Below are positions 33-40,806 of a DNA stretch of 64,000 bases, piece by piece. Numbering within the stretch: position 1 is the first letter of the stretch; each line of letters opens with the position of its first letter. Origin of the DNA: Scenedesmus sp. PABB004 (lineage: Eukaryota); NCBI GenBank assembly GCA_014905635.1, contig JABVCE010000016.1, positions 62,001-126,000 of the forward strand. The letters are read 5' to 3'. The translations under genes were made by a program, and so were the position numbers. A model generated the notes under the pieces. It did no database searches and had not been told where the DNA came from. It saw only the letters and a list, made by a program, of their open reading frames with translations.

Positions 33-2999
<2,967 letters not shown>

Positions 3000-3306: not shown

Positions 3307-5176
3307 TCAGCGGCCCTGCTTGGTCTCCTGCATCGCCTTCCACATCGCAGCCACGACTGCGGGGCGGCGGCGGTGACCGCTCAGCACTCGGCCGCTCAGC
3401 GGCGGGGCGGCGCGGCCGCCCGCGCGGCGCGCGGCGCGCGTACGCGGGCCGATGTCGGGGTGCTCGAGCCAGCGCGAGATGACTGCAGGGCTGTTGGGGT
3501 TGTCACTGATCTCCTTGATGGCCTTGTAGAACTGAGGGGGGGGGGGGGGGTGGACACAGCGGCGGCGGCGGGGCGCGCGTCCGCGTTGCGCGGGCGCCGC
3601 GCCGCGCGGGCGTACCAGCACCGCGCCGCGACGCGTGCAGCGCGCGGCGCGCCGCGCGCCTCGGGGTGCTTCTGCGCGGCCGCGACGACGCTCGGGTCGG
3701 CGAGGCGTGAGAGGACGCTCATGTCGATGGCGCCCATTGCGCTCGACCCCCACGCCGCCCGGAAGCGCTGCGCCAGCGGGTATTGTGTGTGTGGGTGGGG
3801 GGGGGGGGGGGGGGGCGTTGGCGAGCAGGCGAGGGCGTGGCGCGCAGGCCCGCTCGCAGGCTGGGGAGGGGAGGGGCGCAGCGGGGCGGGGGTGGCGGCC
3901 GCACCGAGAGGAAGGCCTGGTGCGTGGCGGGGTCGGCGCTCGCGCGGCGCTCCTCCTCCAGGATCGACCGGTACTGCGCCAGGCTCGCCGCCAGCCTGCC
4001 CGGCGGGCGGCGCGCGACGCGCGCGGCGCGCGCGTGAGGCCCCCGCCCCTCAAACACATATGACACGGGGCCCCGCCGCGGCGGCGCCGCCGCGAGCCGC
4101 CGCGCCCCGGGCACGCAACAACGCCGCCGCGCACCCCTCAAACATGACGGCGAGCGTGAAGCCGCCCTCGAGCATCTGTGCGTTGACGTAGCGCAGGTAC
4201 TCGCGCGCCGCGGCGTCGTCGCACAGCTCCAGGCGCTTCATAAAGATCTGGCGGGGGTGTTTTGAGTGTGGCGGAGGGGCAGCGCAGCGCGTGAGTGCCG
4301 AACCGCCGCCGGCGCCCCAACGGCGGCGGGGCGTGCGGGGATCGGCGGGGCGTGTGGGGGATCGGAGCTCCCACCGCCGCGCGCCGCGCCGCACCTTGTA
4401 GCGCTCGGTGCCCTCCTCCATCTGCGGCGGCGGCGGCGGGCGCCGGGCGGGCGGGCGTCGGCCGCGCGGGCGCGGCGCGGCGGCGGCAGGGCCCGCGGCG
4501 GCGGTGGCACGCCGCAGGTGCCGTGGCACGCGCCATCAGCGGCCGTGGCCGGCGCCGCCGGCGGCCGTGGCATGCTGCAGGTGCCGCGTCACCTTGTCCA
4601 GGAACATCTCCTTGCCGGCGAGGTCAAAGTCGGGGAAGCGCGCGGCCATCATGCTCAGCGAGCGCAGCTCCGTCATGATGCTGCGCCAGCGCCAGCGGCA
4701 GCGGCGGCGGCGGCGGCGGCGGCGGCGGTCGCGGTCGCGGTCGCGGTCGGCTCCGCACGGGCGCCCCGCCCCGCGTCGCCCCGCGGCGGGGCGCACCTGT
4801 CGAACTCCTTGACCACCAGCTCGCTCTGGAAGACCTTGGACTTGAAGAGATTGTCATACGCCTCGCCGTAGTCGCCGCCCGCGGCGGGGACGCGGCCTGG
4901 GGCGCGCGCGCGGCGCGGCGCCAGTCGGCGCCGCATGCATGCGGCCTGTCGGTGCCGCGCGCACGCCGCGCCCGCACCGGCGAGCCGCGACGGGCGCAGC
5001 TGCTGCTGCGGCCACTGCAGCTGCAGCGGCTGCCGCCACTCCAGCGCGACGCCAGCGCCGCCGCCACGCGCTGCTGCGGGCGCCGCTGCGCTCGCGCCCG
5101 GCGGCCGCCGCGGCGCGCCGCACGCCGGGCAGAGCGCCGCGCGCGGGACGTGCAACGAGGGCGCCGCGCAGCGCAT
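3307..5176 (-). CDS. Plastid-targeted DUF1825-like protein with a C-terminal STI1-like helical region
   Basis: Transit-like N-terminus, then FKSKVFQSELVVKEFD..FPDFDLAGKEMFLDKMEEGTERYKIFMKRLELCDD, resembling cyanobacterial DUF1825 as recalled. C-terminal exons read FYKAIKEISDNPNSPAVISRWLEHPDIGP. Spliced. Confidence 0.75.
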
Positions 5177-5558: not shown

Positions 5559-8291
5559 ATGTACCCGCACATCCCGCAGCCGGGTGTCGCGGGCGGCGCG
5601 TCGCCCTACCCGGCCGTGCCGGCGCCGCTCGCGCCGGCGCAGCAGCAGGGCCAGCCGCACCCGCAGCAGGCGCCGCAGCCTTACCTGCAGCAGCAGCCGG
5701 GGCAGCCCTACCCGCAGCACCAGCAGGCGCCGCAGCCGTACCCGCAGCACCCGCAGGCGGCGCAGCCGTACCCGCAGCACCCGCAGCAGGTGCAGCCCTA
5801 CCCGCAGCAGGCACCGCCGCCGTACTCCCAGCAGCCGCAGCCGTACCCGCAGCAGCCGCAGCCGTACCCGCAGCAGCCGCTGCAGCACGCGGCGACGGCG
5901 CCGCCGCCGGCGGCGCGCCTGTACCCGCCCGTGCCGCCGCCGCTGCCGTTCAGCGCGCCGCCGGCGTCGGTGCCGCACGGCTACGACGTGCTGGTCTACA
6001 TCCAGCAGGCGACGGGCCTGCCCGCGTGCGACTGGTGGAACGGCCTCGCCGACCCCTACGTGCTCATCCACAGCTACACCGCGACCGGCGAGCAGCTGCA
6101 GGAGTACCGGTGCGGCAGATGCGGCGGCCGCGGCGGCGGCGGCAGCTGCGTGGCGACGTGGCCGCGCGGTGGCGGGCGCGCCCGGCGGCGGCGCGGGGCG
6201 TGAGGGCGGCGCCGACGCGCCGCACGCGCCGCACGCGGCGCGCGCGCAGCACGCGCACGGTGCACAAGAGCCTCAACCCGACGTGGGATGAGTTCTTTGA
6301 GCTCGGCAACCTCCCCGCCGGCTCCTACCTGCAGGCGCGGGGACGCGGGAGCGCGGGGCGGGGGCGGGGCCGCGCTCGCGGCTGATCTGGCGGCTGGGCG
6401 GGCTTGCGGGCCGCGCTCTCCCGCGCCCGTGGCCGTCGCGCGCCGGGCCGCTCACGCGGGGCAGCGCGGCCCGCCGGCCGCAGGTGGAGGTGTGGGACAA
6501 GGACGTGGTGACGGAGGATGACATAATCGGCCGCGCCAACTGGACCTTTGCGCCCGGCGCGGTGCGGCCGCGCGCCGCCCCGCCGCGGCCGCCGCGCCGT
6601 GGCCGCGCCCCGCCCGGCGCGAGCGCGCGCCGCGCCGAGCCGCGCCGCGCAGCTGCTCCCGGCGACGACCGCGGGCGGCGGCATCCTCGGCGGTGACGCG
6701 ACGTGGGGCCGCACGCTCGTGGAGCTGCGCCTCGCGCACCCGACCAAGGGCGCGCGCAAGAGCACCGGCACGATGCACTTTGAGGCGCGCGCGCGGCCGG
6801 CGCGACCCCGCCGCCGGCCCCTCGCCGACGGCCCCGCGGCCCCCCGCCCGCCGCGCCCCCGACGCCGCGCCCCGCGCCCGCCGCCGCCGCGCCCCCGCCG
6901 CCGCCGCCCCGCAGGTCGTGTTCCGGCCCTCGGCCGCGCCCGGCCGGCCGCGCATGCTCGGCCCGGTGCGCTTCAAGCAGCACCTCAGCACCGCGGCAGG
7001 CGTGCTGATGGGCAACTGGGCGAGCGCCGACACGATGTGCTTCAGTACATACAAGCTCTACCTCACCCACATCAGCGAGGTCTTTGGCTCCCTGCGCATG
7101 CCCTGGAACAGGCAGTACGACAAGGTGCGCGGGCGGGGCGGGGGGTGGGGGTGTGGGCGTGGCCTGGTGGGCGCTTCGGGGGGCGGGCAGGAGAGGGAGG
7201 GAGGGAGGCGGCGGCCCGCGCGCCGCCCGCCGCTCACGCGCGGCGCGCGGCGGGCGTGTGGCGCCGCGACCGCAGGCGGCGGCGATCTTCAAGAGCCCGC
7301 TGATGCTCGGCACGGTGCGCACGCAGCACGCCACGCTCTACGCGACCACGCTCGGCTCCAGCCGGTGCGCGCCGCCGCGCCGCAGCCGCCGCAGCCGCGC
7401 CGCGCCTCGGCCGCCGCACCGCCGCCGCGCGCCGCGCCGCCGCGCTCGCCGCGCGCCACGCCGCCGCGCTCGCCCCGCGCCGCGCCGCGCCACGCCCACC
7501 GCGCCTACACCCCCCCCCCCCCCCCCGGCACACACACACGCGCGCGCCCCGCAGCTGCGGCGTGCTCACGAGCGCGGCCGACTTCTTCGAGCTGTTCAAG
7601 CACGGCCGCCGCGGCGGGCAGTGCCGATACTTCACATACGCCCTGCTGCCCGACAGCCTGCGCTGCAGCGAGACGGCGCGCGCGGCGGCGGCGGCGCGGC
7701 GCGGGGCGCGGCGCGAGCAGCCAGCACGCCGCGCGGGGCGCGGGCGCGCGGGCGCGCGGCAGCGCGGGCGGCTGGCGACGGCGCGCGCCCGCGCCCGCGC
7801 TGCCGCCCGTCTGCAGGGCGCCGCGTTCCTTCGGGACATGATGTCAAAACACGCGATGCACGCGGGCGGCGAGGAGGAGGTGCTGTACGCGGGTGCGGCG
7901 GCGCGGCGCGCAAGGCGTGCGTGGTGTGTGCGTGTGGGTGTGTGTTTGTGTGCGTGTGAAGGAGAGGGGTCGGCGCGCTCCCGCGGCGCGCCCGACGGCG
8001 CCCGCGCCCGCCCGACGGCGCCCGCGTCCACCGCGCGCTGCCGCGTCCGCCGCCCGCCTCGGCGCAGGCGAGTTTGCGATCTTTGACGCCCCCGGCGCGC
8101 CGGGCGGGTCGAAGCTCGTGGTCGACAACAACAGCGGCACGTACGCGCCTGCGGCGCGCGGCCTGCCCCTCATGGCCCGCCTCTTTACCGCCAACTTCCC
8201 CGACATGGCCGTCGAGGTGCTCGACGTCAAGGCCGACGCCGCCGCGCTCGGCCGCTACCACGCGCTCTGCCCCAGCCGCGCGGCGGCCTGA
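5559..8291 (+). CDS. C2-domain protein with an N-terminal PYPQQ low-complexity region and a conserved C-terminal domain
   Basis: C2 motifs LPACDWWNGLADPYV, TRTVHKSLNPTWDEFF and VEVWDKDVVTEDDIIG. C-terminal FTYALL..SETGAAFLRDMMSKHAMH..AGEF..VVDNNSGTYAP. ATG 5559, TGA 8289-8291. Confidence 0.85.
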
Positions 8292-9045: not shown

Positions 9046-12000
9046 ATGCCGACCACCGACCTGCTCAAGACGTTTGGCCTGAGCCGCAACCCGTTCACGG
9101 ACCGCACCGCGGAGAAGACAGCGCACGATGAGACCAGCCTGTACATCCACTCCGACCTGCGCGCGTTCAGGCCCAACGACACCACGTGCGCGCCGCGGCG
9201 TCGCGGCTGCGCTCCCTCCCGCTGCCCCGCCGGCCGGCACGGCCGACGGCGGCGGCGGCACGGCGCGGGCGTGGGCGCGCGCGGCGGCACGCGCCACACC
9301 GCCGCCGCACCGCGCCGCGCCGGCGCAGGTATGTGTTCTTCGGCAAGCGCGGCTCCGGCAAGACCACGATCCGGCTGCAGCAGGAGGCGGCGTACCGCGC
9401 GCACAACGCGGCCGCGGTGGCGGGCGGCGGCTCGCAGGGCCACTTCATGGTGGACCTCTCAAAGCCCGGCCACCTCACCGCCTGCCTCACCCAGTTCCAG
9501 GCCTGCATAGGCAGCTCGCAGGACAACTGGGACGCCGCGTTCCAGGCGCGCGCCCGCCGGCGGCGGCGGCCGGGGGGCGCCGCGCCGCGGCGCGGGCGCC
9601 GAGCCCCCCGCGGCCCCGCGCCCCGCGCCCTGCACCGACCAGGCTGCCGCCGCCGCCGCGGCCGCCGCCGTGCCGCCGCCGCGCGTGAACCCCTGGACTC
9701 CGCAGGAGGCGTGGACGAGCAGCGACATGGTCGACTGCATCCTGTCTTACGCTGCGACGCGGCTGGTGGGGCAGGTCACGGCCAACGACGCGACGGCGCG
9801 GCGCATGCTCGACGTGCTGCGCGGCGACCCGCGCGCCGCGCAGCAGTTCCTGCTGCTCGCGCACCTCTACGCGCGCACCGACGCCAACACGCTCGCCTGG
9901 CTGCGCGCGGTGCTCGTGCGCGCAAAGTGCGGCGGCGCGCGCGTCGCGGCGCGGCGGCGCGCGGCGCAGGCCGGGCCGGCGGCGCGCCGAGAGCCCCGCG
10001 CCGCGTGCGCCCCCGGTCGGAAGGCGCGTCCGCCCGCTGGCCTCACCGCCGCCCGCCCGCTGCCGTGCGCCGCCGCCGCCGCCGCCGGGGGCAGGTACAC
10101 GCCGACGCAGGTCGCGGCTGGCGTGGGCGTCGCGGCGACGGTCGCGGCGGGCGGGCTCGCGGCGCTGCGCGACCCGGACGTGCTGGACGCGCTGTCGGCG
10201 CCGGCGGAGCGCGTGTGGGAGCAGCTGGAGGCGGTCGCGCCGCCGCTCGCGAGCCACCCCAAGCTCGTGCTGGGGGGGCTGGGCCTCGCCGTGCTCGGTG
10301 GCGCGCTGCTGTGGAGGTGCGTGGCGGGCGCGCGGCGCTGCCGACCGCGCGCGGGCAGCGCCGACGCCGACGCGCCGCGCCGCCCCGCCCGCAGGCGGGG
10401 CTGCAGCGCGGCGAGCATCGGCCGCGCCGCGGAGCTGCAGGCGCAGGTCCGCGTCGTCAAGCAGCAGCCGCCCGCCGTGCTCGCCTCGCTCCTCGACAGC
10501 CAGTTCAGCAGCCAGGTGCGGCGCGCCCCGCCGCCGAGCGCTGCCGCGGAGGCGCCGCGCAGCCGTCGGCGCGCGCGCCGCTGAGGCGTGCCGCCGCCGC
10601 TGCCGCTGCCGACGCCCGCGCCCGCGCGCACGCGCGCCCGCGCGCGCTTGCAGGACAAGCCCGACACGATCCGGCTGCTCGTGCTCGGCGTGAGCGCGCA
10701 CCAGAAGCTGGAGCTGCTGGAGCGCCTCGTCGTGCAGCTCGGCTACGAGAGCGTCACCGTCTTTGGCGACTGCTTCGACGAGGCGCGCGCGCCGGCCGGC
10801 GCCCGCTGCGCCGCCCGCTGCGCCCCGCTCCCTCCCCCCCACCGCGAGCCTGCTCGCGCCCGCCGCGTCGCGTCGACGCCCCCGCGCCGCGCGCCGCCGC
10901 GCTGCCGCGCCGCCGCGCCGCGCACACCGCCGCGCCGCCGCGCCGCGCGCTGTGCCATCAGGTCACGCTGCTCGACCCGGTGCGCTTCCCGGGCGCGATC
11001 AAGGTCTTTGCGCGTGAGATCTGCCGCAACGACCTCCTCAACTTTGGCCGCCTTCACTTTTTCTTCCCAGACTCGCGGTGCGGCGGCGGCGGCGCGCCCG
11101 CCCGCCCGCCGCGCCGCCTGCGGCCGCGCGCTGGGCCGCGCCGCGCCCGCTGCGCGCCCTCTGCCCACGCGCCCGCGCCGCCGCCCACGCCGCGCGGCAG
11201 GCTGGCACTGGACCTGAGCACCGACAAGACGCTCAAGGAGGCGCGCTTTGACCGCCACTTTGTGCGCGGTGCGCCCCGGGGCTTAGGGTTTGACGAGGGG
11301 GTGCCCTGAGCGGAGCCGCCGGGGCAGAGCCCCTCTTGAGCCAAGGGGCCGTCCCGCCCGGCGCCGGCAGCGCGGCGGCGGGCCCCGCGGGTCCTCGTGC
11401 GCCAGCGGCCGATGCTGAGCCCGCTCCGCGCGCCGCGCCGCGGCGCGCAGACCTCGTGTGGTCGCGGCACCAGCTGGAGGAGCTCGCGGAGCGGCGCTTC
11501 CGCGCGGCGCAGGTGTGCGGCGCGCGCGCGCGCCCCTGCCCCCGCGTGCCAAGACGTTCGCCCACACGCGTGCGGCTTCGCAGCGCTCCGCGCGCCGCGG
11601 CCGTCCCACGCGGCCGCGGCCGTGCCGCCGCTGTGCCGCAGGACGCGCTCAAGGCCGAGGCCGCCGCCATGGGCGCGGCGTACCTCGCGGGCGACCCCGA
11701 CGCCGCCGAGGCGGCGGCGACGAGCTTCGCAGACCTCTTTAAAAAGGCACGGCAGCAGCAGAGCGCCGCGCCGGCCCCGGCACCCGCCGGTGCTGGCGCA
11801 GTGCCGCGGCGCGCGCCCGCCCCGTGCCTCTGGCCGCCCGTTCGCTCGGCGCCCTCCTCTCGCCCTGCCGATCGCGCCGCCGTCCGCGCCGCGCGTCCGC
11901 CCGCGCGTCCGCCCGGCACGGCCCGCCCGCCCGCAGGTGCGTGGCGAGGACTTTTCGTCGTACCTGTCCAAGCTCTCCACGCCGCGCGAGCTGCTGATCA

Positions 12001-20001: not shown

Positions 20002-20810
20002 ATGGCCTCGCGAGCAGCGGCGGCACCGGCCGTCGCCCACGGCAGCAGCAGCCGCCGCCGGCCAGCGGCCACGCAGCTGCTGCTGGTCCTGGCGCTGGCC
20101 GCCGGCGCGGCGCGATCCGTCGCCGCGGTCGCGCCCGGCGCCGCGCCGTCGTCGCTCTCGGCGGCGGGGCCGTCGTGCGTCGAGGGCTTTTTCAACACCA
20201 CCGCCAGGCACTACGCCGGCGACCCGGAGTGCGCGTACCTGGTGCAGGCGGCGTTCGCGGCGGTCTCGGCGGACCAGTGCCCCGACGGCGGCGGCGGCAC
20301 GGGGTCGCCGCTGCACCGCTGCCTCGCCGCGAGCGAGGTGCGGCGCGAGCGAGCGTGGGCGGGTCGGCGCAGGGCGGGCCTCTGCGCCGACTCCCGGGCA
20401 CGGCTGCGCACGGAGCAGGGCGGGCCTCTGCGTGCGACGACCGTTGCACGACCGCACGCAGGCCACCATCGCCGCCTGGTCGGCCTTCCTCGACCGCTGC
20501 CCGCTGGCCAACGTGCTGCAGCAGGCGCGGGCGACCAGCCGCAGCGGGGCGCGCGCGGCCGGCGCCGCAGCGCGCTCGCGCGCTCACCCGCCCGCTCGCC
20601 CGCGGCGGCGCGCAGGGCTCGGGGCGCCGTGGGGCGTACAGCTGCTTTCCCAAGCTCGAGAGCGTGCAAGCTTTCGAGGACTACGCGCGCTCCAGCGGCA
20701 GCGGCTCGCGCGGCGTGGCGGCCAGCGGCGCGGGCGTGGGCCGGCGACGCGGCGGCGGCGCGAGCGCGGCGCTGGCGGCGGCCGCGGCGGCCGCCGCCCT
20801 GCTGCTGTGA
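20002..20810 (+). CDS. Small Cys-containing secreted protein, probably GPI-anchored
   Basis: Hydrophobic signal-like LLLVLALAAGAA, six Cys in the mature part, a Ser/Gly spacer and a hydrophobic C-terminus AALAAAAAAAALLL*. Three exons. Confidence 0.6.
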
Positions 20811-24448: not shown

Positions 24449-27138
24449 ATGGCGCGGCCGGCGGCCTGCACGGTCGGTCTGCTGCTGCTGGCCCTGGCTC
24501 AGCCAGCGGCAGCGCTGCCGATCAAAGGCGGCGCCGCGCGGGAGGCGGTGTTCACGCCGCGCGGCAACGTCTCGGCCCGCGTCTGGACGAACGCCAGCGC
24601 GCCGGGCTTCGTGTGGCCGGAGCTCTCGGACACCGAGTTTGGCATGCCCGCCCTGCTGCGCCGGCCCAACCTGGGCATCGCGCTGAGCGGCGGCGGCATG
24701 CGAGCGACGACACTCGCGCTCGGCTGGGTCCGCGCGCTGTGGCAGGTGACCGGCGCGCGCGCGGCGCCGCGCACGGCAGCGCCCGCGCGGCCGGCTGACG
24801 CGCGGCCGGCTGACGCGCGGCCGGCTGATCTGCGCCGCGCGCGCAGATGGGCGTGCTGCAGCGGGCGCGGTATCTCGCCAGCAACAGCGGCGGCAGCTGG
24901 TTCAACGGCGCGTTCAGCTTCACGCAGGCGCCGCTGCGCCAGTTCCTGGGGCCGTACGTGCCGCCCCAGAACCTCACGCTCGCCGTGGCGGGCGCGCTGC
25001 CGTGGGGGAGCTACGCGGCAGCGATCAGCGACGCGCAGCCGGTGCTCGACATCGTCGGCTCGACCGTCGTCGACGCCGGTGCGGCCGGCTGCGCCGCGCC
25101 GCGCCGCGCGCGCGCCGCGCCGCCGCGCCGCGCGCCGCCCATCCCGCGCCCGCGCCCGCGCCCGCCAGTGTCGGCGCGCGAGGACGTGCGCGCGTGGTCG
25201 GACGCAATCGGCGAGGCGTTCCTGGAGCCCTTTGGCGTCGGCGACCACGCGAGCAGCGTGACGACGCTCGGCACGCGCGGCCGCGTGCACGAGCGCGTCG
25301 CGGCGGAGGTGCCGGTCCCCCTGCTCACCGCCGGCACGCAGGAGCGGTGCGCCGCGCGACGCCGCGCCGCGCCGCGCCGTGCCTGCCGCGCCGGCCCGCG
25401 CCGCGAGCGCCGCGCCCCTCCGCCGCGCCGCCGCGCCGACGCCAGGCCCTTCCCCATCCTCCTGGGCAGCCTCATCCTGCGGAACGACTCGAGGGTGTTC
25501 TTTCCATTCGAGTTCACGCCCCTCTACTTTGGCAGCCCCCCGCTCGCGGCCGACGCGCGGCCGGTCGCGGTCGGGGGCGGCATGGTCGAGCCGCTCGGCT
25601 TCAACTCGGCGCCGCCCGGCGCGGGCGTGGTCAGCCCTGACGGCAGCAAGGCGCGCGCGCGGCCCGTTCCGCGGCCCGCGCCGCGCCGCGCCGCCCCCGC
25701 CGCCGCGGGGCGCGCGCCGGCCGCCGGCCGCCGCGCCGCACGCCACGCGTGCCACGCCTCCGCGCCCGCCGCGCGCGCGCGCGCGCAGTCTGTGAGCGTG
25801 GCGAGCGACTACGTGGTCAGCCTCGCGCAGGCGGTGGGCGTGTCGAGCAGCTTTGTCGCGCAGAAGACGCGCGGCGGGCGGGAGGGGCGCGAGGAGCTGC
25901 TGAGCGTGGAGGAGCTGGACTACTGGAACCAGTATGACTTCCGCGGTGCGCCGCCAGCTGGCCGGCGCGGCGGCGCGGCAGCGGCACGGCGGCGGCTTGG
26001 CGGCGGCGCGGTCCCGCGCCCCGAGCGGCCCGGGCGGGCGCGGCGCGCCGAGCGGCGCCGCCCTCGCGCCGCGCCGCGCCGCGCCGCGCCGCGCCGCGCA
26101 GGGACGGAGGATGCGCATTTCGCCGATGGTGGCGGCCACGATAACACTGCAATTACGCCGCTCCTGCGCCGCGGCGTGACGGCGATCATCGCCGGCTGCG
26201 CGACGTCCTGCGCCACGAGCACCAACGCCACCGACTACGCAGCATGTGAGCGCCGCGCGCGCCGCGCCCCGCGCCCCGGCTGCCACTCGCTGGCGTGCCG
26301 GTCAACCTTGCTGCTGCGCCCCCGCAGGCCAGTGGGACATCTCGGGCCTCTTTGGCGCCATCCCGCTGGCCATGGGCCCGATCGACGGCGTCGAGCCGGC
26401 GGTCTACAACAAGATGCTGCAGGTAGGCGCGGCGCGCGCACGCCGTGTGGAGTCAGGGGGCCCTGTCTGCCGCGACCGGGCTGCGCACCCAGCACGACCG
26501 GACCGGTCCGCCGCGCGCAGGTCTTCCCGACGAGCGCGTACGCCCAGTTTTACGCCGCGCTGCGCGCGCGCACCGCGGCCGGCGGCGCGGCGGTGGTCAG
26601 GCAGGCGCTGCCGGTGCTGCCCAACGCGCACCTCGGCGTCGCGGGCGGCTTCACCACGACGCTGCTGTGGCTGCTCAACGCGCCGACGCCGTCGTGGGAG
26701 GCGGCGCTGCCGGACGAGACGCGCGAGCTGCTGGCCCGGCACCGCGGCGGCAAGGCGCTCGCGGCCAAGGTGGATCGCATCAACCCGCTCGCCGCGTCCA
26801 GCCTCAAAGACTTTCCCCTGATCTCCACGTTTGCGATGGACTACACGCCCCAGCTCACGCAGCTGCTGAGCCAGCTCGCGAGCTGGACCGCGACGCAGGC
26901 GGGCGCCGACATGCGCGCGATGGCCGCGGGCGGCGGCGGCGCGCCGGCGGCCGGCGGCGGCGGCGCGCCCGCAGCGGCAGGCGGCGCGGCGGCGGGCGCG
27001 CCCGCGCAGCAGGCGGGCAGCGGCGCGCCGGCGGCGGCGGGCGGCGCGGGGCCGGCGGGCGCGGCGGCCGCCAAGCCGGCCGCGGCTGCGCCGGTGGCGG
27101 GCGCTCCGGGGGCGGCGCTCAACGCCTCGCGCGCGTGA
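24449..27138 (+). CDS. Secreted patatin/cPLA2/lysophospholipase-like hydrolase
   Basis: Signal peptide; GIALSGGGMRA (oxyanion/Arg motif); YLASNSGGSW (catalytic Ser); FADGGGHDN (catalytic Asp). TGTAA at 27151. Confidence 0.85.
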
Positions 27139-30500: not shown

Positions 30501-32602
30501 GCCCTGAACGGGCCAGCCTGATGGAAGGTTTGATGGAAGGTTTGAGCCTCTCAAACCCAACCCACGCGCGCCCTGCACAAGGGCGCGCCCCTGGTTCCCC
30601 GTGTGTGTGTGCTAGCTAGGCCGGTGTGCGTTTGTGTGTGTGTCGGGCCCATGCGTGGCTGCTGGCAGCAGCACCGTGATTGATTTCTGCCGGTGCATGC
30701 CTTTCGTCCGCACGGTGCGCGGGCGACCAGCAGCCAGCGCGGGAGCGGGCAGCAGGCCGGGCGGCCGGGCCCTGGGCCTAGGCGGGCAGCCGGCGGCGGC
30801 GAGGATTTTCCCCGCCCTCTCCTGCCCCGGCTGGGTGCCGCGTGGCCGCATGCAGCGCTGTGATTGCGCCTGCCACCAGACCGGCCCCCCGACTGCGGTA
30901 ACCCCGAGGAGGCCGCGCCCAACGCCACACGCAGCGACCACCGCAACCGCGCGCAAACAACACGACACGCAAACGGCGGCGCCGCACCTGCACGCCGCGC
31001 GTGATCGCGGTCGCCGCCGCGGGGTAGCAGCGCGGGTAGAGGGAGATTGCGCCCGCCACCTGTCGCAAGCGCAGCGGGCGCTCAGCACACAGCAGGCGCT
31101 GTGCCGGCGCTGGCGACGGCAGCAGCATCGCCAGCGGGCAGCGGGGCGCAGCGGCGACGCGCACCTGCACGCCCGCCTCCTCCAGCGAGCCCCTGGCGTT
31201 GGAGTCGGCCTCGCAGCCGCCGTACCAGCCGGCCGCCAGGCGGCGGGCGTACTCCTCAAACCAGCTGCGGCGGGGGCGACCAGCGGCAGCCGCGTCAGCA
31301 TCAGCAGCCGCGGCGGTGGCGGCGAGCAGGCAGCTCGCGCGCCCGCGCAGCGGGCTCCCTGCGCCCCCCGCCGCGCACCGCACGAGGCCGTCGCACGCGC
31401 CGCCCTCGCCGCCCGGCGGCGCGAGCGGCCAGTCCTGCTGCGGCAGCTTGAGGTAAACGTCGCCGCTCTCGCAGTCCAGCACGCACACCTGCGGCGCGGC
31501 GCGGCGCGGCGTCGCTGCTCGGCAGGGCTCGGCGCAGCGCGCCGCGGCCACGCCGCGAGGGCGCCACACACGGCCGGCGCGCGCACGCGGCCCCGCGCCT
31601 TGTCGTTGGGCCTGAAGGAGCGCGCAAACACGACGTGCCCCGCGGGCAGCAGCGGCTGCCGCGCGCCCATCGGCTGCGGCGGCGGCGGCGGCGGCGGCGT
31701 GGGCGGCGGCGCGGGCGCCGCGCCGCGGCGCCGCCCGGCGCCGCCCCTGGCCTCGCCGGCCGCCCGCGCTGCCGCGGCGTGCCGCGCACCCGTATGCTGC
31801 GGTAGAGCAGCGACTGCTGCACCACGTCGGCGAGCGGCTGCAGCGCGTTGCTCGTGACGTGGTCGTAGAAAACGAGGGTGCCAAACAGCCCCAGCAGCAG
31901 CCGCGGCGGCGGCGCGCCGGCGGGGCCCTGCTGCAGCTGCAGGTCCTGCCCGTTGTGCACGCTGCGGCGGACGCGCGGCGGCGGGCGCGGCGCGCGGCGG
32001 CGCTCGGCGGCGCTCGGCGCCGCCCCGCCGCGCGCGGGCCCAGCGCGTGCCGCGCCGCGCGGCGCCCCACCGGTAGATGCAGCGCAGCGCGAGCGGCAGC
32101 GGGTGCCCGAGCGCGGCCTCGGCCTCGGCGACCTGCGCCGGCGTCGCGCCGGGGTTGAGCGTCTCCAGCACCTGGGGCGCGTGCTCGCGCAGCCACGCTT
32201 TGAGGCCGCCCCACGCCGCCAGCGCCCGCGCGAGCATCGGGCCGGCCACGTCCCCGTACGCGCCGCGCCAGGCCGCGTACGCCGCCCTGCGGCGGCGGCG
32301 GCGGGGTCGCGCGGCGGCGGGTCGCGCGGCGGGCGCGCACGCCCGCACGCGGGCGCGCGCCCGCTCTCGCGCGCCCCGCACCTGAAGCCGGCCGCGGGCG
32401 CGCCGTCGGGGCCCGCCGGCGCGGTCGCGGCAAAGTCGGCGGCAAGGTGGGGCCGCCAGACCGCGTCGTCGCCCGCGCCGGCGCGCCAGAGCGGGTGCAC
32501 GCACGCCGCGCGCGCCGCGTCGGCCGGCGGGAGGCGCGCAAAGATGGCGGCCTGGCAGACCAGCTCCAGGTCGTTGAAGCCCGTCGGCGGGGCCGCGGCC
32601 AT
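27406..32602 (-). CDS. SKIP16: F-box protein SKIP16-like (F-box + SMI1/KNR4-like + ApaG), 8 exons, last intron 28135-30987
   Basis: F-box (FARLPPADAARAACVHPLWR); LNPGAT..AEAALGHPLPLALRCIYRVHNGQ; TAITRGVQ spliced GT-AG to VTWSAVLVPQES..FTYSVRF; ApaG motifs CQLETRAWRI..VSGEGVVGLYPLL..GGMEG. Confidence 0.88.
28457..30507 (+). CDS. Secreted Ala/Pro/Lys-rich repeat polyprotein (about 592 aa), nested antisense in the SKIP16 intron
   Basis: Exons 28457-28670, 28857-28917 and 29004-30507 with GT-AG introns in matching phases. Signal peptide MKSSLVFIVAALALAAVAGA. Six repeats start at R[H/T]LLEE. Confidence 0.88.
29143..30467 (+). repeat. Coding tandem repeat, six units of about 190-273 bp
   Basis: RxLL codons at 29143, 29335, 29554, 29827, 30046 and 30265. 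Units are nearly identical and differ mainly in the number of AAQP(A) sub-repeats. Confidence 0.95.
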
Positions 32603-33114: not shown

Positions 33115-36100
33115 ATGGCGGACAGCTGGGAGGACGCGGCGGAGCCGCCCAAGCCGTTCGTGCCCCGGGCAGCCGCGCCCGCCTTTGTGCCGCGCGCCTC
33201 GGCCCCCGCGTTCGTGCCGGGTCAGGCCATCTACGCCCCCGCGCCGGCGGCGCCGCGGGCGCCGCAGCAGCAGCAGCCGCCGGCGCCTCCGGCAGCGGCG
33301 GCGCCGCCACCGCCGCAGCCGCCGGCGCCCGCGCCCGCGCCGCAGCAGGCGGCGCCGCCGCCGCCGGCGCCGGCGCCGGCCGCGCCGCCCGCAGCCGCGG
33401 GCGCCGCCGACGGCCTCGCGAGCGCGGCGGCAGCGCTGTCGCTGTCCGGCGGCGGCGCCGCCGCCGCCGCGCCGCCGCCGGCCGACGACGAGCCGATGCC
33501 CGACGCGCCGCCGCCGGCGGCGCCGGCAGCCGCGCCGCCGGCGGACGCGGAGGAGCTCGACGCGCCGCCCGTGGACGAGGGGCGCGTGATGGACGCGTAC
33601 CGGCGGCTGCTCGCGGAGGACCCGCGGGACCACCTCAACGTCGTGTTCATCGGCCACGTCGACGCGGGCAAGTCGACGCTCGGGGGGCAGATCCTCTTCC
33701 TCACCGGCGGCGTGGACAAGCGCACGATCGAAAAGTACGAGCGCGAGGCAAAGGACAAGAACCGCGAGTCGTGGTACATGGCCTACATCATGGACACAAA
33801 CGAGGAGGAGCGCGTCAAGGGCATCACCGTCGAGGTGACCGCGCAGTGCCCGCACATTGCGCCGCCCGCGCGAATTGCGCCACCCGCGCGCATCGGCGGC
33901 CGCGCACTGGCTGGCAGCGCGGCGGGGCGGCGGGTGCGGGGCGCGGCGGCGCGGGCGCCGACGCCTGCGCCGCCCCGCCGCCGCCGCCCGACCGTGCCAG
34001 GTCGGGCGCGCCAAGTTTGAGACCGAGCGGCGGCGCTACACCATCCTGGACGCGCCGGGGCACAAGAACTACGTGCCCAACATGATCATGGGCGCGGCGC
34101 AGGCGCGGCGCTGCGGCGCGCGGGGCTGCGGGCGGGGCTGCGGCGCCCGGCGGCGCCGGGGCGAGCACGGGGACGGGGCCGCAGCAGGCGGCCGGCAGCC
34201 GGCCGCGCCGCGCCGCCCGCCCCGTCAACGCCTGTGCTGTGGCGCCGCGCCGCGCCGCGCCGCGCGCAGGCGGACGTCGCGGTGTTGGTGATCAGCAGCC
34301 GCAAGGGCGAGTACGAGACGGGCTTTGAGAAGGGCGGCCAGACGCGGGAGCACGCGCAGCTCGCCAAGACACTGGGCGTGGTCAAGCTGGTGGTCGTGGT
34401 CAACAAGCTCGACGACCACAGCGTCGTCGGCCCCGGCGGCGTGTGGTCGCAGGACCGGTGCGCGGGGCCGGCGCGCGCGCCGCGCAGCGCCCCGGGAGCC
34501 GCCGGCGGCGGCGGCCAGCTGCGGCCGGCAGCGGGCGCTCGGCGCGCCGCCCGCTGGCCGCGCTCCTGAGCCGCCCGCTCCCTCGCCCCCGCCCCCGTCT
34601 CCCTCCCTCGCCACCCTCTCCCCCCTCCCGCCCTGCCGCCCTTGCAGGTACGACGAGATCGTCAAGGGCCTCACGCCATTCCTCAAGACCTGCGGCTACA
34701 ACCCCAAGAAGGACCTCACATTCATACCCATCAGCGCCCTGCACGGCCACAACGTCCGCGACCGCGCGGCGCCCGAGGCGCGTGCTCGCGGGGCGCGCGC
34801 CCGCGCGCGCGCGGCGGCGCGGGTCGCGCGGCGCCGCCGCGCCCTGCACTGCCGCTGACGCGCAGCTGACGTGGCGCCGCGCGCACCGCGCCGCGCGCTG
34901 CCACAGGTGTGCCCCTGGTACGACGGGCCGACGCTGTTCGAGACGCTCGACACCGTGGAGGTGCCCACGCGGTGAGACCCCCGCCGCCGCCGCCGCCCGC
35001 GCCGCACCCCCGTCCCCGTCCCGTCCCCGCCTCGCGCTTCACCCCCGCCCGCGCCGCCCCGCCGCGCCGCCGACGCGCCGCGTCGCATCGCAGCGAGCCG
35101 ACCGCGCCGTTCCGCATGCCGATCGTGGACAAGTACCGCGACATGGGCACCATGGTCATGGGCAAGAGCGAGGCGGGGCTGGTGCAGCTCGGCGACGTGC
35201 TGCAGGCGCGCCTCGCGCCGCGCCGCCGCCGCGCAGCCGCGCCGCCGCCGCTGTGCCGCGCCGCGCGCCGCGCCGCCGCCGTCGTCCCCCACGCGCGCGC
35301 CCCGCGCTGCTCCGGCCCTGCTCCTGCACGCCGAGGCAGGGCGGGGCGAGCGCGAGGGGCGCGTGCGGGGGCGACGTGCTGCGCCCCCGCCTCCCTCTCA
35401 CCCTCCCTCACCTCGCCTCGACTCTCTCCTTGCCCGCCTCCCTCATGCCGCCCCTCGCCCCGTCGCCCCCGCGCCCCGTCGCCGCTCTCGCCGCCCTCGC
35501 CCCGTCGCCCCGTCGCCTGAACCCTGGCCCTGGCCCTAAACCCTGGCCCCAGGTGATGCCCAACAAGCTGCGCGTCAAGGTCGAGGCGATCTTCCGGGAC
35601 GAGCAGGAGGGCTTTGCCGCGCGCGCGGGCGAGAACCTGCGCCTGCGCATCAGCGGCGCGGAGGAGGCGGACGTCAACACCGGCTTCGTGCTCTGCAGGC
35701 GCGCGCCGCGCCCGCCACGGCTGCCGCGGCCCCGCGCCGCGCCCGCGCGCCGCCTGCGCCCGGGCCGCCCGCGCCGCCGCCGCGCCGCGCACGCCCCGCC
35801 CGCGCCGGCGCCGCCCCTGACCCGACCCCGCGCGCCGCCGCCGCCGCGCCGCGCCGCGCCTGGCGCCGCGCAGCGTCAAGAACCCGGTGCCGCTCGTGTC
35901 GACGTTCGAGTGCCAGCTCGTCATCCTGGAGCTGCTGGAGCACAACCCCATCTTTACGGTCGGCTACCGGTGCGCGCCGCCGCGGCGCGGCCGCCCCGCC
36001 CCCCTCCGCCTCCTGCGCGCGCGGAGGCCCCTCTGTCTCCCGCGCGCGCCCGCGCTCACACGCCCACACAACCCGCACCGCACGCGCGCGCGTGCGCACG

Positions 36101-36538
36101 CGCGCGCAGGAGCGTGCTGCACATCCACACCATCGTCGAGGAGTGCGAGGTCACCAAGCTCGTGCACGCGATCGACATGAAGACCAAGGAGAACAAAAAG
36201 GCACGGCGGTTTAGGGCAGGGCGGAGCGGGGGTTGAGGGCGCGCCGGGCGGCGGGGAGAGGGCGGCGGGGGCGCGGGGCGCGGCGCGCCGCCGCAGCGGC
36301 GCGGCCGCCACGGCGCCGCCAGGCTGACGCCGCCGTCGTGGCCGCCGCGCCCGCCGCCGCCGCGCCACAGGTCAAGTACGTCAAGAGCGGCGCGATGTGC
36401 GTGTGCCGCATCACGACCGAGAAGCCGGTGTGCATCGAGGCGTTTGGCGACCTCCCCGCGATGGGCCGCTTCACGCTGCGCGACGAGGGCCGCACCATCG
36501 CGATCGGCAAGGTCACCAAGCTGCCCAAGAACCACTGA
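33115..36538 (+). CDS. eRF3: Eukaryotic release factor 3 (GTP-binding subunit), 10 exons
   Basis: MADSWED; PAM2-like FVP repeats; [71 protein letters not shown]. Confidence 0.97.
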
Positions 36539-37224
36539 GCCCGCCGGCCGGGGTCACTGAGCCTGCGCGGCGCCGGGGCGGCGGCGGAGCCGGGCCTGCC
36601 GCCTGGCCGCCGGGGCGCCGAGGGGCCGGCCGGCCCCCGCGCGGCGGCCGTTTTGTTGCGAGGGCGCCGCGCGGCGGCTCCTGCGGGGCCGGGGAGGGAG
36701 CACGGAGCGGGGGCAGCAGCAGGAGCAGCGCAGGGGCTGGCGCGCTGGCGCGCGCCGGGCGTTTGGCAGCCAGCTGCGCGAGGCGGCGGGCTGGCGCGCG
36801 CGCCGGGTCCTAGCAGGCAGCGGACGCGTTGCGGGACGGGGTGTGGGGGGGGGGATTGGCGGCCGGGGGAGTGAGGGCGGCTGCACGCGCGCATGGGCGG
36901 TCGAGCGAGGGCAACGGTGCCCCGCGCGGAGCGCGCGCGCCGCGCCCGGCGCCGGCGGCGCCGCAAGCAAACGCAGCAGCAGCAGCTGCTGGCGCAGAGA
37001 TGATGGGCAGCGCCTGGATCGGCGCGCCCACGCAGCGAGCCGCTGGGCAGCCGAGCGCCGCGCTTTTGCTGCTGCGCCGCGCAAGGCGGCCTCTCGCCGC
37101 CGCCGCTCGCCGGTCCCGCTGATATCAAACCGCTCCGCACGATCGAACGACGCCTGGTTGTCGTGCCCGCGCGAGCCCACTCGCCACGCCAGCGCATCGC
37201 CCCGACTCCGCGCGCTCCCCGGCC

Positions 37225-39525
37225 ATGCTGCGCGGCCAGGCGTCCACCCGGGCGGCGGCCCGGCCGGCGGCTCGCGGCGCCGCGCTCGGGGCGGCGCCGC
37301 TGCGCTGCCGCCGCGCGGCGGCAGCGGCGGAGCAGCGGCCGCGCGCGGCGGCGGCGCCCGCGGTCGCGCCGGGCGCGCCCGCGCCCGCGCCGCGCCGCTC
37401 CGGAGCCGGCGGCGCCCTGGCGCAGCGCCCGGGCGCGTCGCGGCGGCGCGCGCTGCGCGTGGCTGCGGTCGCGCTGATGCCGAGCGCCAAGGACGACCGG
37501 CTGCCCGTCACCGTCATCACCGGCTTCCTGGGCAGGTGCGGCCCCCAGCTGCCTGGCGCATACGGCCCTGCACCGCCGCGCGCCGCGCTCGCACGCCGGC
37601 AGCGGCGGCCGCCGCCGCTGCGGACCGCCGCTCGCGCGCGGCGCCGCCGACGCGTCGTCCGCGCGCGGCCGCCGCGCGCAGCGGCAAGACGACGCTGCTG
37701 AACCGCATCCTCACCGGCGACCACGGCAAGCGCATCGCGGTCATCGAGAACGAGTTTGGCGAGATCGACATCGACTCGGAGCTCGTCGCGCGCACGGGTG
37801 CGGCGGCGCACGCGGCGGCGGCGGCGGCGCGCGGCAGCCGGCGGGGGTCCCAGCGCCAGCGCGGCGGGGGCGCGCCGCCGCGGCGGCGCTCATGCGCGCG
37901 CGCCGCGCGGCGTGCGCCGCGCAGAGACGCTGGAGGGCACGGGCGACGCTGTGACGATGCTGAACAACGGCTGCCTCTGCTGCACCGTGCGCGAGGATCT
38001 CGTCAAGGTGCGGCGGCGGCGGCCGGGGGCAGCGGCGGCGGTGGCGACAGCAGCGGCAGCAGCGGCAGCAGCGGCGGCGGCGGCGGCGGCGGCGACGGCA
38101 GCAGCAGCGGCAGCGGCGGCGGCGGCGGCGGCAGCCGGGGCGGCGCGGCGCGCCGAGGCCACGGCCAGCAGGGAGCGCCGGCGCACTCCCTCACCGCGCT
38201 GGCCCACCCGCCGCCGCCGCTGCGGCCGCGCGCCTGCATCGCCTGCGCCGCGTGCAGGCGCTGAACAAGCTTTACGAGCGGCGCGAGCAGCTGGACCACA
38301 TCATCATTGAGACCACCGGCCTCGCCAACCCGGGGCCGATCGTGTCGAGCTTCTACATGGACCAGCAGGCGCGCCGCCTGGCTGAACGGCGTGGGCAGCG
38401 GGCGGGCGGGCGGCTGGCTGACGGGGCGCTGGGCTGGTGGGGGCCAGCGTGCAGCGCGCGCGGCGGCGGCGCGGGGCCGCCCCGCCGACGCGCGGCGCCG
38501 CGCCGCCGCCGCCGCCGCCGCCGCTGCCGCCGCCGCCGGCCCGCCGCAGCTGCCGGACCGCGTGCGCCTGGACGGCATCGTGACGGTCGTGGACGCGAAG
38601 CACGTGACCCGGCACCTCGACGCCGCGGAGGCCGACCCCGAGCGCGTGAGCGAGGCGGTGGAGCAGGTCGCGATGGCTGACGTCATTGTGCTCAACAAGG
38701 CAGACCTGGTCGACAAGGCGAGCGCGCAGAGCACCCCGCGCGGCGCGGCGCATGCTGCGCTTGTGGTGTGTTGTGCGCGCGTGACGAGTGCGGTGTGTGC
38801 GCGCGTGTGCGTGCGCGTGTGTGTGTGGCGCACTGGCGGCCGGTGCGCCGCCGCGCGGCGCGCGCCCGCCGCTCGCTGACGCGCCCGCGCCCGCGGCCAT
38901 GGCTGCCCGCAGGACTTCCTGGCGTCGCTGTCGCAGCGGCTGCGCGGCGTCAACGCGCTGGCGCCGATCACCGCGACGTCGCGCGCGGAGGTGCGCCGCG
39001 CGCCGCACGCCCCGGGGCCGGCGGCCCGCCTCGCGCGCCGGCGCCGCGGCCGCCGAGCCCCTGCGTGTTCCCTGCGCGCCGCCGCGGCCAGGTGCCGCTG
39101 GCGAGCCTGCTGGGGCTGCGCGGCTTTGAGCTGGAGGCGGTGGAGGGGGCGCTGGCGGGCATGGACAAGCGCGCGGCGCTCGACCCGGGGCACGTGTGCG
39201 GGCCGGAGTGCGACCACGACCACGACCACGCGCACGACCACGGCCACGCACACGCGCACGATCACGCGCACAGCCACGATCACGACGAGCACAGCCACGA
39301 GCACAGCCACGGGCACGGCGAGGCCTCGGCCAGCGGCGCCGGCCACGACCACGACCACGGGCACGAGCACGGGCACGAGCACGGCGCCGAGTGCGGGCCG
39401 GGCTGCACCAACCCCGACCACGACCACAGCCACGACCACGCGCCGGCCAAGCCGCTGCACAACGACAAGGCGCGCGGCGGGGCTGCGCCCTCCCGCGCCC
39501 CCGCCGCGCGCTCCCACGCGCCCGC

Positions 39526-39613
<88 letters not shown>

Positions 39614-40404
39614 CGCGCCGCCGCCCGCCCTCCGCGCTCGCCCCGCGCGCGCCGCCCTCGGCCGGCCGCCCCGGCAGGTCACGAGCATGTCGATCAGCGT
39701 GGAGGGCGACCTGGACCTGGACAAGCTCAACTTCACCATGGGCGCGCTGCTGCAGAGCCGCGGGGAGGACCTCTACAGGCGCGCGCCGCCGCGCCGCGCA
39801 CCGGCGCGCGCCGCACGGGCAGGGCAGGGCACGGCAGAGCCCCCGCGGCCGCGCGCGGGGCGGCGCCGCGCGCGCGCCGCCGACGCTCGTCCTGAGCAAT
39901 TTCAGCTGAACACGATCAACCAACGATCGCATGACGACTAACAACATGACTAACAACATGACATAACATGACTAACAACACAACACGCCCCGCAGGATGA
40001 AGGGCATCCTTGCGATCCGGGGCCTCCCCGAGCGCTACGTCTTCCAGGTGCGCCGCGCCGCGCCGCGCCGCAGGCGCGGCCGGGGCGGGGCGCGGCGGGC
40101 GCGCGCGCGCGCGGGGGCGAGGGCCTGGGCGACGCCGCCATTTGCGACGCCGCGCCCGCCGCCGCCGCCGCCGGCCGGCCAGGCGGTGCACATGCTGTTT
40201 GAGGGCAGCCCCGACCGCCCGTGGCGGCCCGACGAGCCGCGCACGTCGCGCATGGTCTTCATCGGGCGCGAGATCGACGAGCCCGCGCTGCGCGAGGCCT
40301 TCCGGCGCTGCCTGGCCGACCCCGAGGTCACGGTCGAGGGCCCCGGCGGCGAGGCGGTCGCGGGCGCGGCCGCGGCGGCGACGGTCGCGGGCCGCGAGGC
40401 GTGA
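37225..40404 (+). CDS. COG0523/CobW-family metal-chaperone GTPase with a His-rich insert, probably plastid-targeted
   Basis: LPVTVITGFLGSGKTT, IENEFGEIDID, NNGCLCCTVR, IETTGLANP, VLNKADL, a long HD/HE-rich tract and CobW-C (LYRMKGIL..FQAVH..MVFIGR). Confidence 0.95.
39528..39610. repeat. (CT)n microsatellite in an intron
   Basis: Perfect CT run of about 83 bp. Confidence 0.97.
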
Positions 40405-40806
40405 GGCGCGCACCGCGCGGCGAGCGCGGCGCGATTCTTCTTTGTGGCGTTAAACGGTGGTGCGGCTGGCTGGTCCCAGCTGAGGGCTGCCCGGGGCGCG
40501 CGGGGCCAGCCAGGCTCGGGCAGCAGCGCTGGCTAGCGGCGGGCGCCGCGGCGCCGCGGGCGGCCGGCGGGGGCGCTAGCGCCCCCGCCAGCGCTGGCAC
40601 ACCTCCGCCCAGCTCTTGCGCGAGCACTCACACTGGCCCGCGGATCGATCGGGCCGTGACGCCTGACCTCGCGGCTGCCGCGCCCTGAGTCCTGCCCCGC
40701 CTCCGACCCGTGGCGCGCCCCGCCCCCCTCTCCGCTCCAGTCGCGTCGCCGCCAGCTCCCCCAACTCCGTCCGCCAGCTGCCGCGCGCGCTCGCGGCCGG
40801 GGCGCC

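Follow-up and report, generated by a model that had tools for sequence, protein, structure and literature searches.

We examined the introns in a stretch of 64,000 nucleotides of nuclear DNA from the scenedesmacean green alga Scenedesmus sp. PABB004 (contig JABVCE010000016.1 of assembly GCA_014905635.1, positions 62,001 to 126,000 of the forward strand), which we refer to as the window and from whose first letter all coordinates are counted. Four of its genes could be compared with the proteins of relatives: a glutamate-1-semialdehyde 2,1-aminomutase gene (42..2909, reverse strand, 5' end not delimited), a phospholipase-like gene (24528..26912, forward), an eRF3 (GSPT) gene (33115..36538, forward) and a COG0523/CobW-type G3E GTPase gene (37225..40404, forward). 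Of the introns whose junctions we could fix in these genes, about one in three begins with GC rather than GT. The window and the proteins of relatives form the evidence base for all that follows.

The base composition of the window is extreme, with a GC content of 70-84% per 2-kb bin throughout. This is typical of the whole genome, since the available part of its description gives an assembly of 39.8 Mb in 77 contigs with 78.5% GC (PMC12571836); the words 'intron' and 'splice' do not occur in that text. Within the window GC makes up about 69% of the exons and about 85% of the introns, and the interiors of the verified introns are 47.2% C and only 7.5% T (counted over 28 introns, before the last one was added). 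The dinucleotide GC occurs 27,436 times compared to 4,639 for GT, and being six-fold more common it calls for caution with any GC donor that is not verified independently.

Junctions were fixed by spliced alignment to the proteins of relatives, with codon-anchored flanks of at most 30 residues on each side. All donor and acceptor positions near the conserved cores (-24 to +75 nt) were enumerated without any splice-site prior, and each joined stretch was translated and aligned globally, using BLOSUM62, to the matching segment of the homologue. Ties come from the sliding of shared bases across a junction, and among these the pair beginning with G and ending with AG was chosen and compared with the best GT-AG and the best GC-AG pair. 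Proteins that close relatives encode on short contigs, seemingly free of introns, align colinearly across the junctions; an example is the eRF3 reference P0003, with 515 residues from a contig of 2441 bases.

The eRF3 gene has 10 exons and 9 introns, and its spliced coding sequence is open from ATG to stop. Its exon at 34270-34449 (60 residues) is 100% identical to the public protein P0001 (Gspt2, Scenedesmus sp. PABB004) and 86-95% identical to the next dozen matches, of which the named ones belong to the Sphaeropleales (Monoraphidium, Tetradesmus); its identity to green-algal eRF3 proteins is 82-95%. Five of the nine introns are GC-AG. The first (cag/GCGCGG, 34103..34269) joins gap-free with three homologues, and a scan of its range turned up no GT-AG pair. 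At the other four the GC-AG junction outscores the best GT-AG pair: 293 against 268 for gag/GCGCGT at 34778..34906, where the GT-AG pair brings in a 15-residue insertion; 289 against 263 for cag/GCGCGC at 35206..35552, where it costs a 3-residue deletion; 275 against 232 for cag/GCGCGC at 35699..35873; and 309 against 272 for aag/GCACGG at 36201..36370. The best GT-AG alternative at these sites is 25-43 points lower and requires an indel in conserved sequence. For the remaining four introns (33835-34000, 34458-34647, 34972-35093 and 35970-36109) GT-AG is among the top-scoring junctions, and the best GC-AG alternative scores 12-16 points less. P0012 and P0009 reproduce all nine junctions found with P0003.

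The public protein P0001 (1715 residues, 33115-42853, forward strand) is a chimera of three genes, namely eRF3, the COG0523 gene and an F-box/LRR gene. Missing from it are the C-terminus and stop of eRF3 (VTKLPKNH*, stop at 36536-36538) as well as the start (ATG at 37225) and the stop (end at 40404) of COG0523, and it is at these skipped termini that the homologues end and begin. The public gene model does include all nine GC junctions of the two genes, which are thus public yet, as far as we have seen, apparently undescribed.

The COG0523 gene also has 10 exons and 9 introns, and its protein carries a plastid-like N-terminal extension and a His-rich insert. Its junctions were set with P0123, and P0124 and P0122 agree throughout. 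Four of the introns are GC-AG: cag/GCGCGC at 38369..38549 (score 279, best GT-AG 227), aag/GCGAGC at 38718..38912 (253, best GT-AG 235), aag/GCGCGC at 39470..39677 and cag/GCGCGC at 39779..39995, the last two lacking any GT-AG alternative within the range scanned. Of the ten sites verified in the window, 38718 is fixed least firmly, as a non-canonical CA..CC pair scores 256, which is 3 above GC-AG. The other five introns are GT-AG (37536-37681, 37798-37924, 38008-38257, 38991-39091 and 40048-40182), placed by homology. The intron at 39470-39677 contains, at 39528-39610 (forward strand), a (CT)n microsatellite some 80 nt long. The nine GC donors of eRF3 and COG0523 are exactly those that a preliminary description of the window had proposed from the letters alone, and the three homologues of each gene agree on them.

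The aminomutase and the phospholipase-like gene were examined as an unselected check. Seven introns were examined in the aminomutase gene, one of which is GC-AG (cag/GCGCGG, 1316..1458 on the reverse strand, donor at 1458). It scores 299, the best GT-AG pair 244, and three homologues give the same junction, so that the GC donor proposed earlier at this position is borne out. The other six, given as donor to acceptor on the reverse strand, are GT-AG by homology (2858-2531, 2396-2279, 2154-1986, 1762-1623, 1225-1082 and 777-257). The last of these (257-777) has 521 nt at 57% GC and consists for the most part of a (CA)n microsatellite (about 380 nt), which gives an open frame rich in His and Thr and misled both tblastn and the codon score. 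The phospholipase-like gene has seven introns and was compared with 15 homologues (30-52% identity) by summing local alignments. Four of its introns could be fixed in this way, all GT-AG (24746-24846, 25347-25445, 26246-26327 and 26423-26520, forward strand). The three introns after about 25078, 25650 and 25945 could not be fixed with homologues this divergent and were left out before any counting. A GC donor called ab initio at 26432 was overturned, as the homologues place a GT donor (cag/GTAGG) at 26423, 9 nt upstream.

Taking the four genes together, 10 of the 29 homology-fixed introns are GC-AG (34%, 95% confidence interval (CI) 18-54%), with 5 of 9 in eRF3, 4 of 9 in COG0523, 1 of 7 in the aminomutase and 0 of 4 in the phospholipase-like gene. 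Against an expected share of at most 1.5% this has a probability of 9e-12. The alignments to relatives' proteins confirm that about a third of the fixed introns in the window begin with GC, and by this measure the observation stands, with its positions correct. One could still ask if the GC donors are an artefact, either of systematic T-to-C errors in base calling or polishing at position +2 or of misplaced junctions with the real GT donors elsewhere. In-frame GT alternatives do exist at some proposed sites outside the ten verified ones (31598 on the reverse strand, 25651, 20525, and 3659 on the reverse strand, all discussed below). At the ten verified sites, however, a GT-AG junction either needs an indel in a conserved segment of the protein, at a cost of 18-60 BLOSUM62 points, or does not exist in the scanned range, which is the case for 34103, 39470 and 39779. 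For nine of the ten, GC..AG is the sole option beginning with G and ending with AG among the top-scoring gap-free junctions, and repeat scans with a second and third homologue gave the same junctions in 48 of 48 cases. Random errors also would not pick out one exonic context, as the GC donors do (see below). A sequencing artefact is therefore an unlikely source of the GC donors, and with misplacement added the explanation as a whole is scarcely credible.

The anatomy of the splice sites, which is observed directly at the fixed junctions, says more about how the GC donors could be tolerated. Both donor classes have G at +1 and share the frame G/G(T/C)GCG. The G at +3 is present in 9 of 10 GC and 18 of 19 GT donors (27/29), the C at +4 in 9 of 10 and 14 of 19 (23/29) and the G at +5 in 10 of 10 and 17 of 19 (27/29), while the acceptor is CAG in all 29. 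No U12-type ATCC donor was found among the 29 introns, so that a U12-type reading is rejected, and no donor other than GT or GC, such as GA, was found among them either. By all sequence criteria these can be classed as major-spliceosome (U2-type) introns. The branch-like motif CT[GA]A[CT] is present in the last 80 nt of only 7 of the 29, and given this count the branch-site signal may depart from the usual consensus. Where the two classes differ is in the exon. All 10 GC donors follow an exonic AG, as against 10 of the 19 GT donors (Fisher P = 0.011), in agreement with the preliminary description, which had GC donors almost always following an exonic AG (this is so at 19 of the 20 sites it listed) and GT donors in a freer exonic context. 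Counting matches to the standard U1-complementary consensus string outside of +2, the GC donors average 5.35 and the GT donors 4.84 (one-sided Mann-Whitney P = 0.017).

The explanation that we think probably holds is that these are ordinary U2-type introns in which GC-biased substitution has acted on position +2 and has been tolerated through compensating pairing in the exon. We infer the mechanism as follows. A strong GC-biased substitution, whether through mutation bias, biased gene conversion or both, would convert T to C at +2 of the donor. The resulting mismatch between C and the U1 small nuclear RNA (snRNA) would be tolerated only when the remaining pairing is intact, that is A at -2, G at -1 and G at +1, +3 and +5. 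GC donors would then build up at exons that end in AG, with the other sites staying GT, and selection for T at +2 would persist, though weaker in relation to the bias. The preliminary description had inferred GC pressure together with relaxed or adapted U1/U6 recognition, an interpretation that is partly supported: the GC pressure fits the composition of the window and its C-rich and T-poor intron interiors. A simple calculation shows what the bias would do if left alone. With interiors of 47.2% C and 7.5% T, a neutral choice of C or T at +2 would give about 86% GC donors, and the observed 34% therefore means that T is still favoured there by about 12-fold.

An alternative is that the spliceosome itself is adapted, and that a changed U1 5' end, U6 ACAGA box, U1C or PRP8 reads C about as well as U at +2, which would make GC donors effectively canonical. 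The share of 34% (CI 18-54%) lies above the 17% reported for pelagophytes (P = 0.018), and by a rough estimate the composition bias covers only about 2.5 of the roughly 4 log-odds units that separate this alga from a typical 1%, which leaves something for such an adaptation to explain. On the other hand, a persisting mismatch of C with U1 predicts the restriction to exonic AG that is seen for GC and not for GT donors (10/10 and 10/19), a classical way to compensate for a mismatch, so that tolerance with compensation is favoured, and the enrichment of T at +2 over the intron composition is not what would be expected if C were read equally well. Taken from the donor sequences, these two features argue for compensated tolerance and against a U1 that pairs with C. 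We would give the adapted spliceosome only a small chance. An Rfam scan of the 64-kb window found no family at the gathering score and no snRNA gene. A broader form of the same idea has the splicing machinery co-evolved with the genome, such that GC-AG is a second canonical class genome-wide and C at +2 nearly neutral; we hold this to be similarly doubtful. If it were true the alga would have the highest GC-AG share in the green lineage and would be a natural model for donor recognition.

A different proposal is that GC donors are kept by selection for their weakness, in the service of intron retention or of regulated or alternative splicing. The accumulation of GC donors in mammals has been interpreted in this way, as far as the available part of that work shows (PMC2490688), and heavy intron retention occurs alongside GC donors in Emiliania huxleyi, again going by the portion of the paper at hand (PMC4028052). 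The genes in which we find GC donors are housekeeping ones (eRF3, tetrapyrrole synthesis), the junctions fall in conserved domains, and retention of these introns would break the protein. It is also hard to square a share of one third with a regulation that is specific to particular genes. Regulation by weak sites is thus quite improbable as the general cause.

Substitution tolerated by exonic pairing can also be compared with what is known from other eukaryotes. Dinoflagellates have non-canonical donors of the GC and GA type, with GC common; the common GC donors are a trait shared with this alga, and the GA donors, of which there are none among our 29 introns, are a difference. The intronic consensus of ordinary GC-AG introns is GCAAGT, and here it is GCGCG. 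The U2-type GC-AG introns that occur rarely in animals and plants otherwise have the same dinucleotides and the same spliceosome type, and like those described here they have a stronger consensus elsewhere in the donor, but their frequency is 15- to 100-fold lower. In most eukaryotes GT donors make up more than 98.5% of major introns, according to the accessible text of PMC10639083. For the lineages with high rates, the preliminary description had pointed to dinoflagellates and pelagophytes. This holds for the pelagophytes Aureococcus anophagefferens and Pelagomonas calceolata, for which the part of the preprint available reports 14-17% GC-AG introns, attributed to GC content, against 0.32% in the lower-GC relative Aureoumbra lagunensis (bioRxiv 10.1101/2024.10.30.620910). 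The same excerpt quotes 0.3-2% for plants and metazoans and 4% for Cyanidioschyzon merolae. The earlier list left out the closest precedent, E. huxleyi, where 56% of 241 manually mapped junctions are GC-AG and the overall ratio of GC to GT is about 60/40, with 13 junctions verified by reverse transcription PCR (RT-PCR) and a genomic GC content of 65% given by the authors as the cause, in the portion of the paper available to us (Feldmesser et al. 2014, PMC4028052).

The likeness to E. huxleyi, within what that portion covers, is that a large part of the donors are GC, the AG acceptor is kept, the cause is put to high GC and gene predictors biased toward GT mis-model the junctions. It differs in being a haptophyte with 65% GC compared to about 79% here, and yet with a higher share; its junctions were verified by expressed sequence tags and RT-PCR, whereas ours rest on protein colinearity. 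The pelagophytes, as described in the accessible part of the preprint, also have a raised GC-AG share attributed to high genomic GC, but it is lower (14-17% against 34%, CI 18-54%), and they are stramenopiles with few introns per gene compared to the 7-9 in the genes studied here. With such GC-rich lineages the alga shares a high GC content, a GC-AG share of at least 10% (10/29 in the window) and an AG acceptor (29/29). Among the titles that we could judge, which do not cover subscription journals, we found no report of frequent GC-AG introns in Scenedesmus or other green algae. Neither the phenomenon nor this kind of explanation is new for GC-rich algae, and this alga is a phylogenetically new example of it.

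The preliminary description listed 20 GC donors in the window, and a GC is indeed present at each of the 20 positions. Ten are verified by homology as described above, and another, the candidate at 25651..25788 (aag/GCGCGC, forward strand), falls in a variable region of the phospholipase-like gene, with an in-frame GT at +15; around it the 15 homologues, at 30-52% identity, place the best GC-AG donor at 25657 and the best GT-AG donor at 25666. The nine further sites (6335, 6785, 7676, 9546, 10783, 11747 and 20525, and on the reverse strand 3659 and 31598) rest on ab initio evidence only. On the forward strand the candidate introns are 6335..6483 in a C2-domain gene (cag/GCGCGG, no GT from -30 to +93), whose flanking exons match C2 profile positions 39-56 and 69-87 in a way that fits a direct join; 6785..6914 (gag/GCGCGC) and 7676..7816 (acg/GCGCGC), both with no GT from -30 to +120, the latter being the only listed donor without an exonic AG; 9546..9705 in a P-loop gene (cag/GCGCGC), where the sole GT lies at -7 and is out of frame; and 10783..10961 (gag/GCGCGC), where the nearest downstream GT is at +84 and has a poor consensus. 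These five have no plausible GT within reach. The candidate at 11747..11936 (aag/GCACGG) has an in-frame GTGCCG at +54, and that at 20525..20615 (cag/GCGCGG) is weak, with flanking coding scores of 6 and 11 and an in-frame GT at -12. On the reverse strand, the candidate at 3532..3659 (gag/GCGCGC, donor 3659) has an in-frame GT at +27, and the one at 31489..31598 (donor 31598) is doubtful because a consensus cgc/GTGCGC lies in frame 12 nt downstream.

The ab initio gene finder combined codon log-odds with splice-site matrices from 24 verified introns and weighted GT and GC equally. When the aminomutase gene was kept out of the training of the matrices, 5 of 6 aminomutase introns were still recovered. 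All 20 listed GC sites are among its calls, yet it over-calls GC donors. With a loose filter 42 of 90 introns were GC, and with a strict one 24 of 65 (41 GT), of which 13 GC and 25 GT lie outside of the four homology-checked genes. This census gives soft support and suggests a GC-AG share of about 22-37% for the window.

There are several points that weigh against our explanation, and looking at them can help to judge how far it should be trusted. The first group concerns the cause. GC content fails to predict the share across lineages (14-17% in pelagophytes, 56-60% in E. huxleyi with 65% GC), introns with GC and with GT donors have interiors of similar GC content (83% and 81%), and the direction of change, from GT to GC, is something that we infer. 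In relation to this last point, a metagenome scan for the eRF3 loci of relatives kept 80 loci, with a best-segment identity of 42-74% and mostly intron-poor matches, and found none close enough for a comparison of orthologous introns. The second group concerns the numbers. The sample is 29 introns in 4 genes of one 64-kb window, and the share is uneven between the genes (5/9, 4/9, 1/7 and 0/4), with the interval 33835..39995, which had been singled out beforehand, being the richest. Removal of the introns at exactly these sites is predicted from protein colinearity with relatives. The ab initio census is unreliable: when decoy dinucleotides were allowed, 12 of 43 strict calls outside of the four checked genes were decoys, and the GC call at 26432 was overturned by the homologues.

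Two other features of the window may be mentioned. At 58894-61280 (reverse strand) there is a gene whose last exon matches the Bud13 family (Pfam E-value 1.2e-15), which belongs as a subunit to the RES complex of pre-mRNA splicing; it is a splicing factor, and nothing ties it to the choice of donor. At 29173-30468 (forward strand), behind a signal-peptide-like start at 28457, there is a tandem array with a period of 219 bp and one unit of 273 bp, whose copies are 98-99% identical. It encodes six Lys/Ala/Pro-rich units of 49 residues, five of them identical and the sixth with a different tail, and it has no match in Pfam. The ab initio gene finder breaks this array with dubious aag|GCCGGCG 'introns'.

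A practical consequence of these findings is that gene predictors that favour GT mis-model genomes of this kind, while a naive acceptance of GC over-calls, and both effects are seen here; the overturned GC call at 26432 is a case of such over-calling. For the biology of the group, a chlorophycean green alga joins the small number of lineages where GC-AG introns form a major class, and it provides a data point at an extreme nuclear GC content (about 79%), which helps to separate the contribution of composition bias from that of spliceosome tolerance in the evolution of donor sites.

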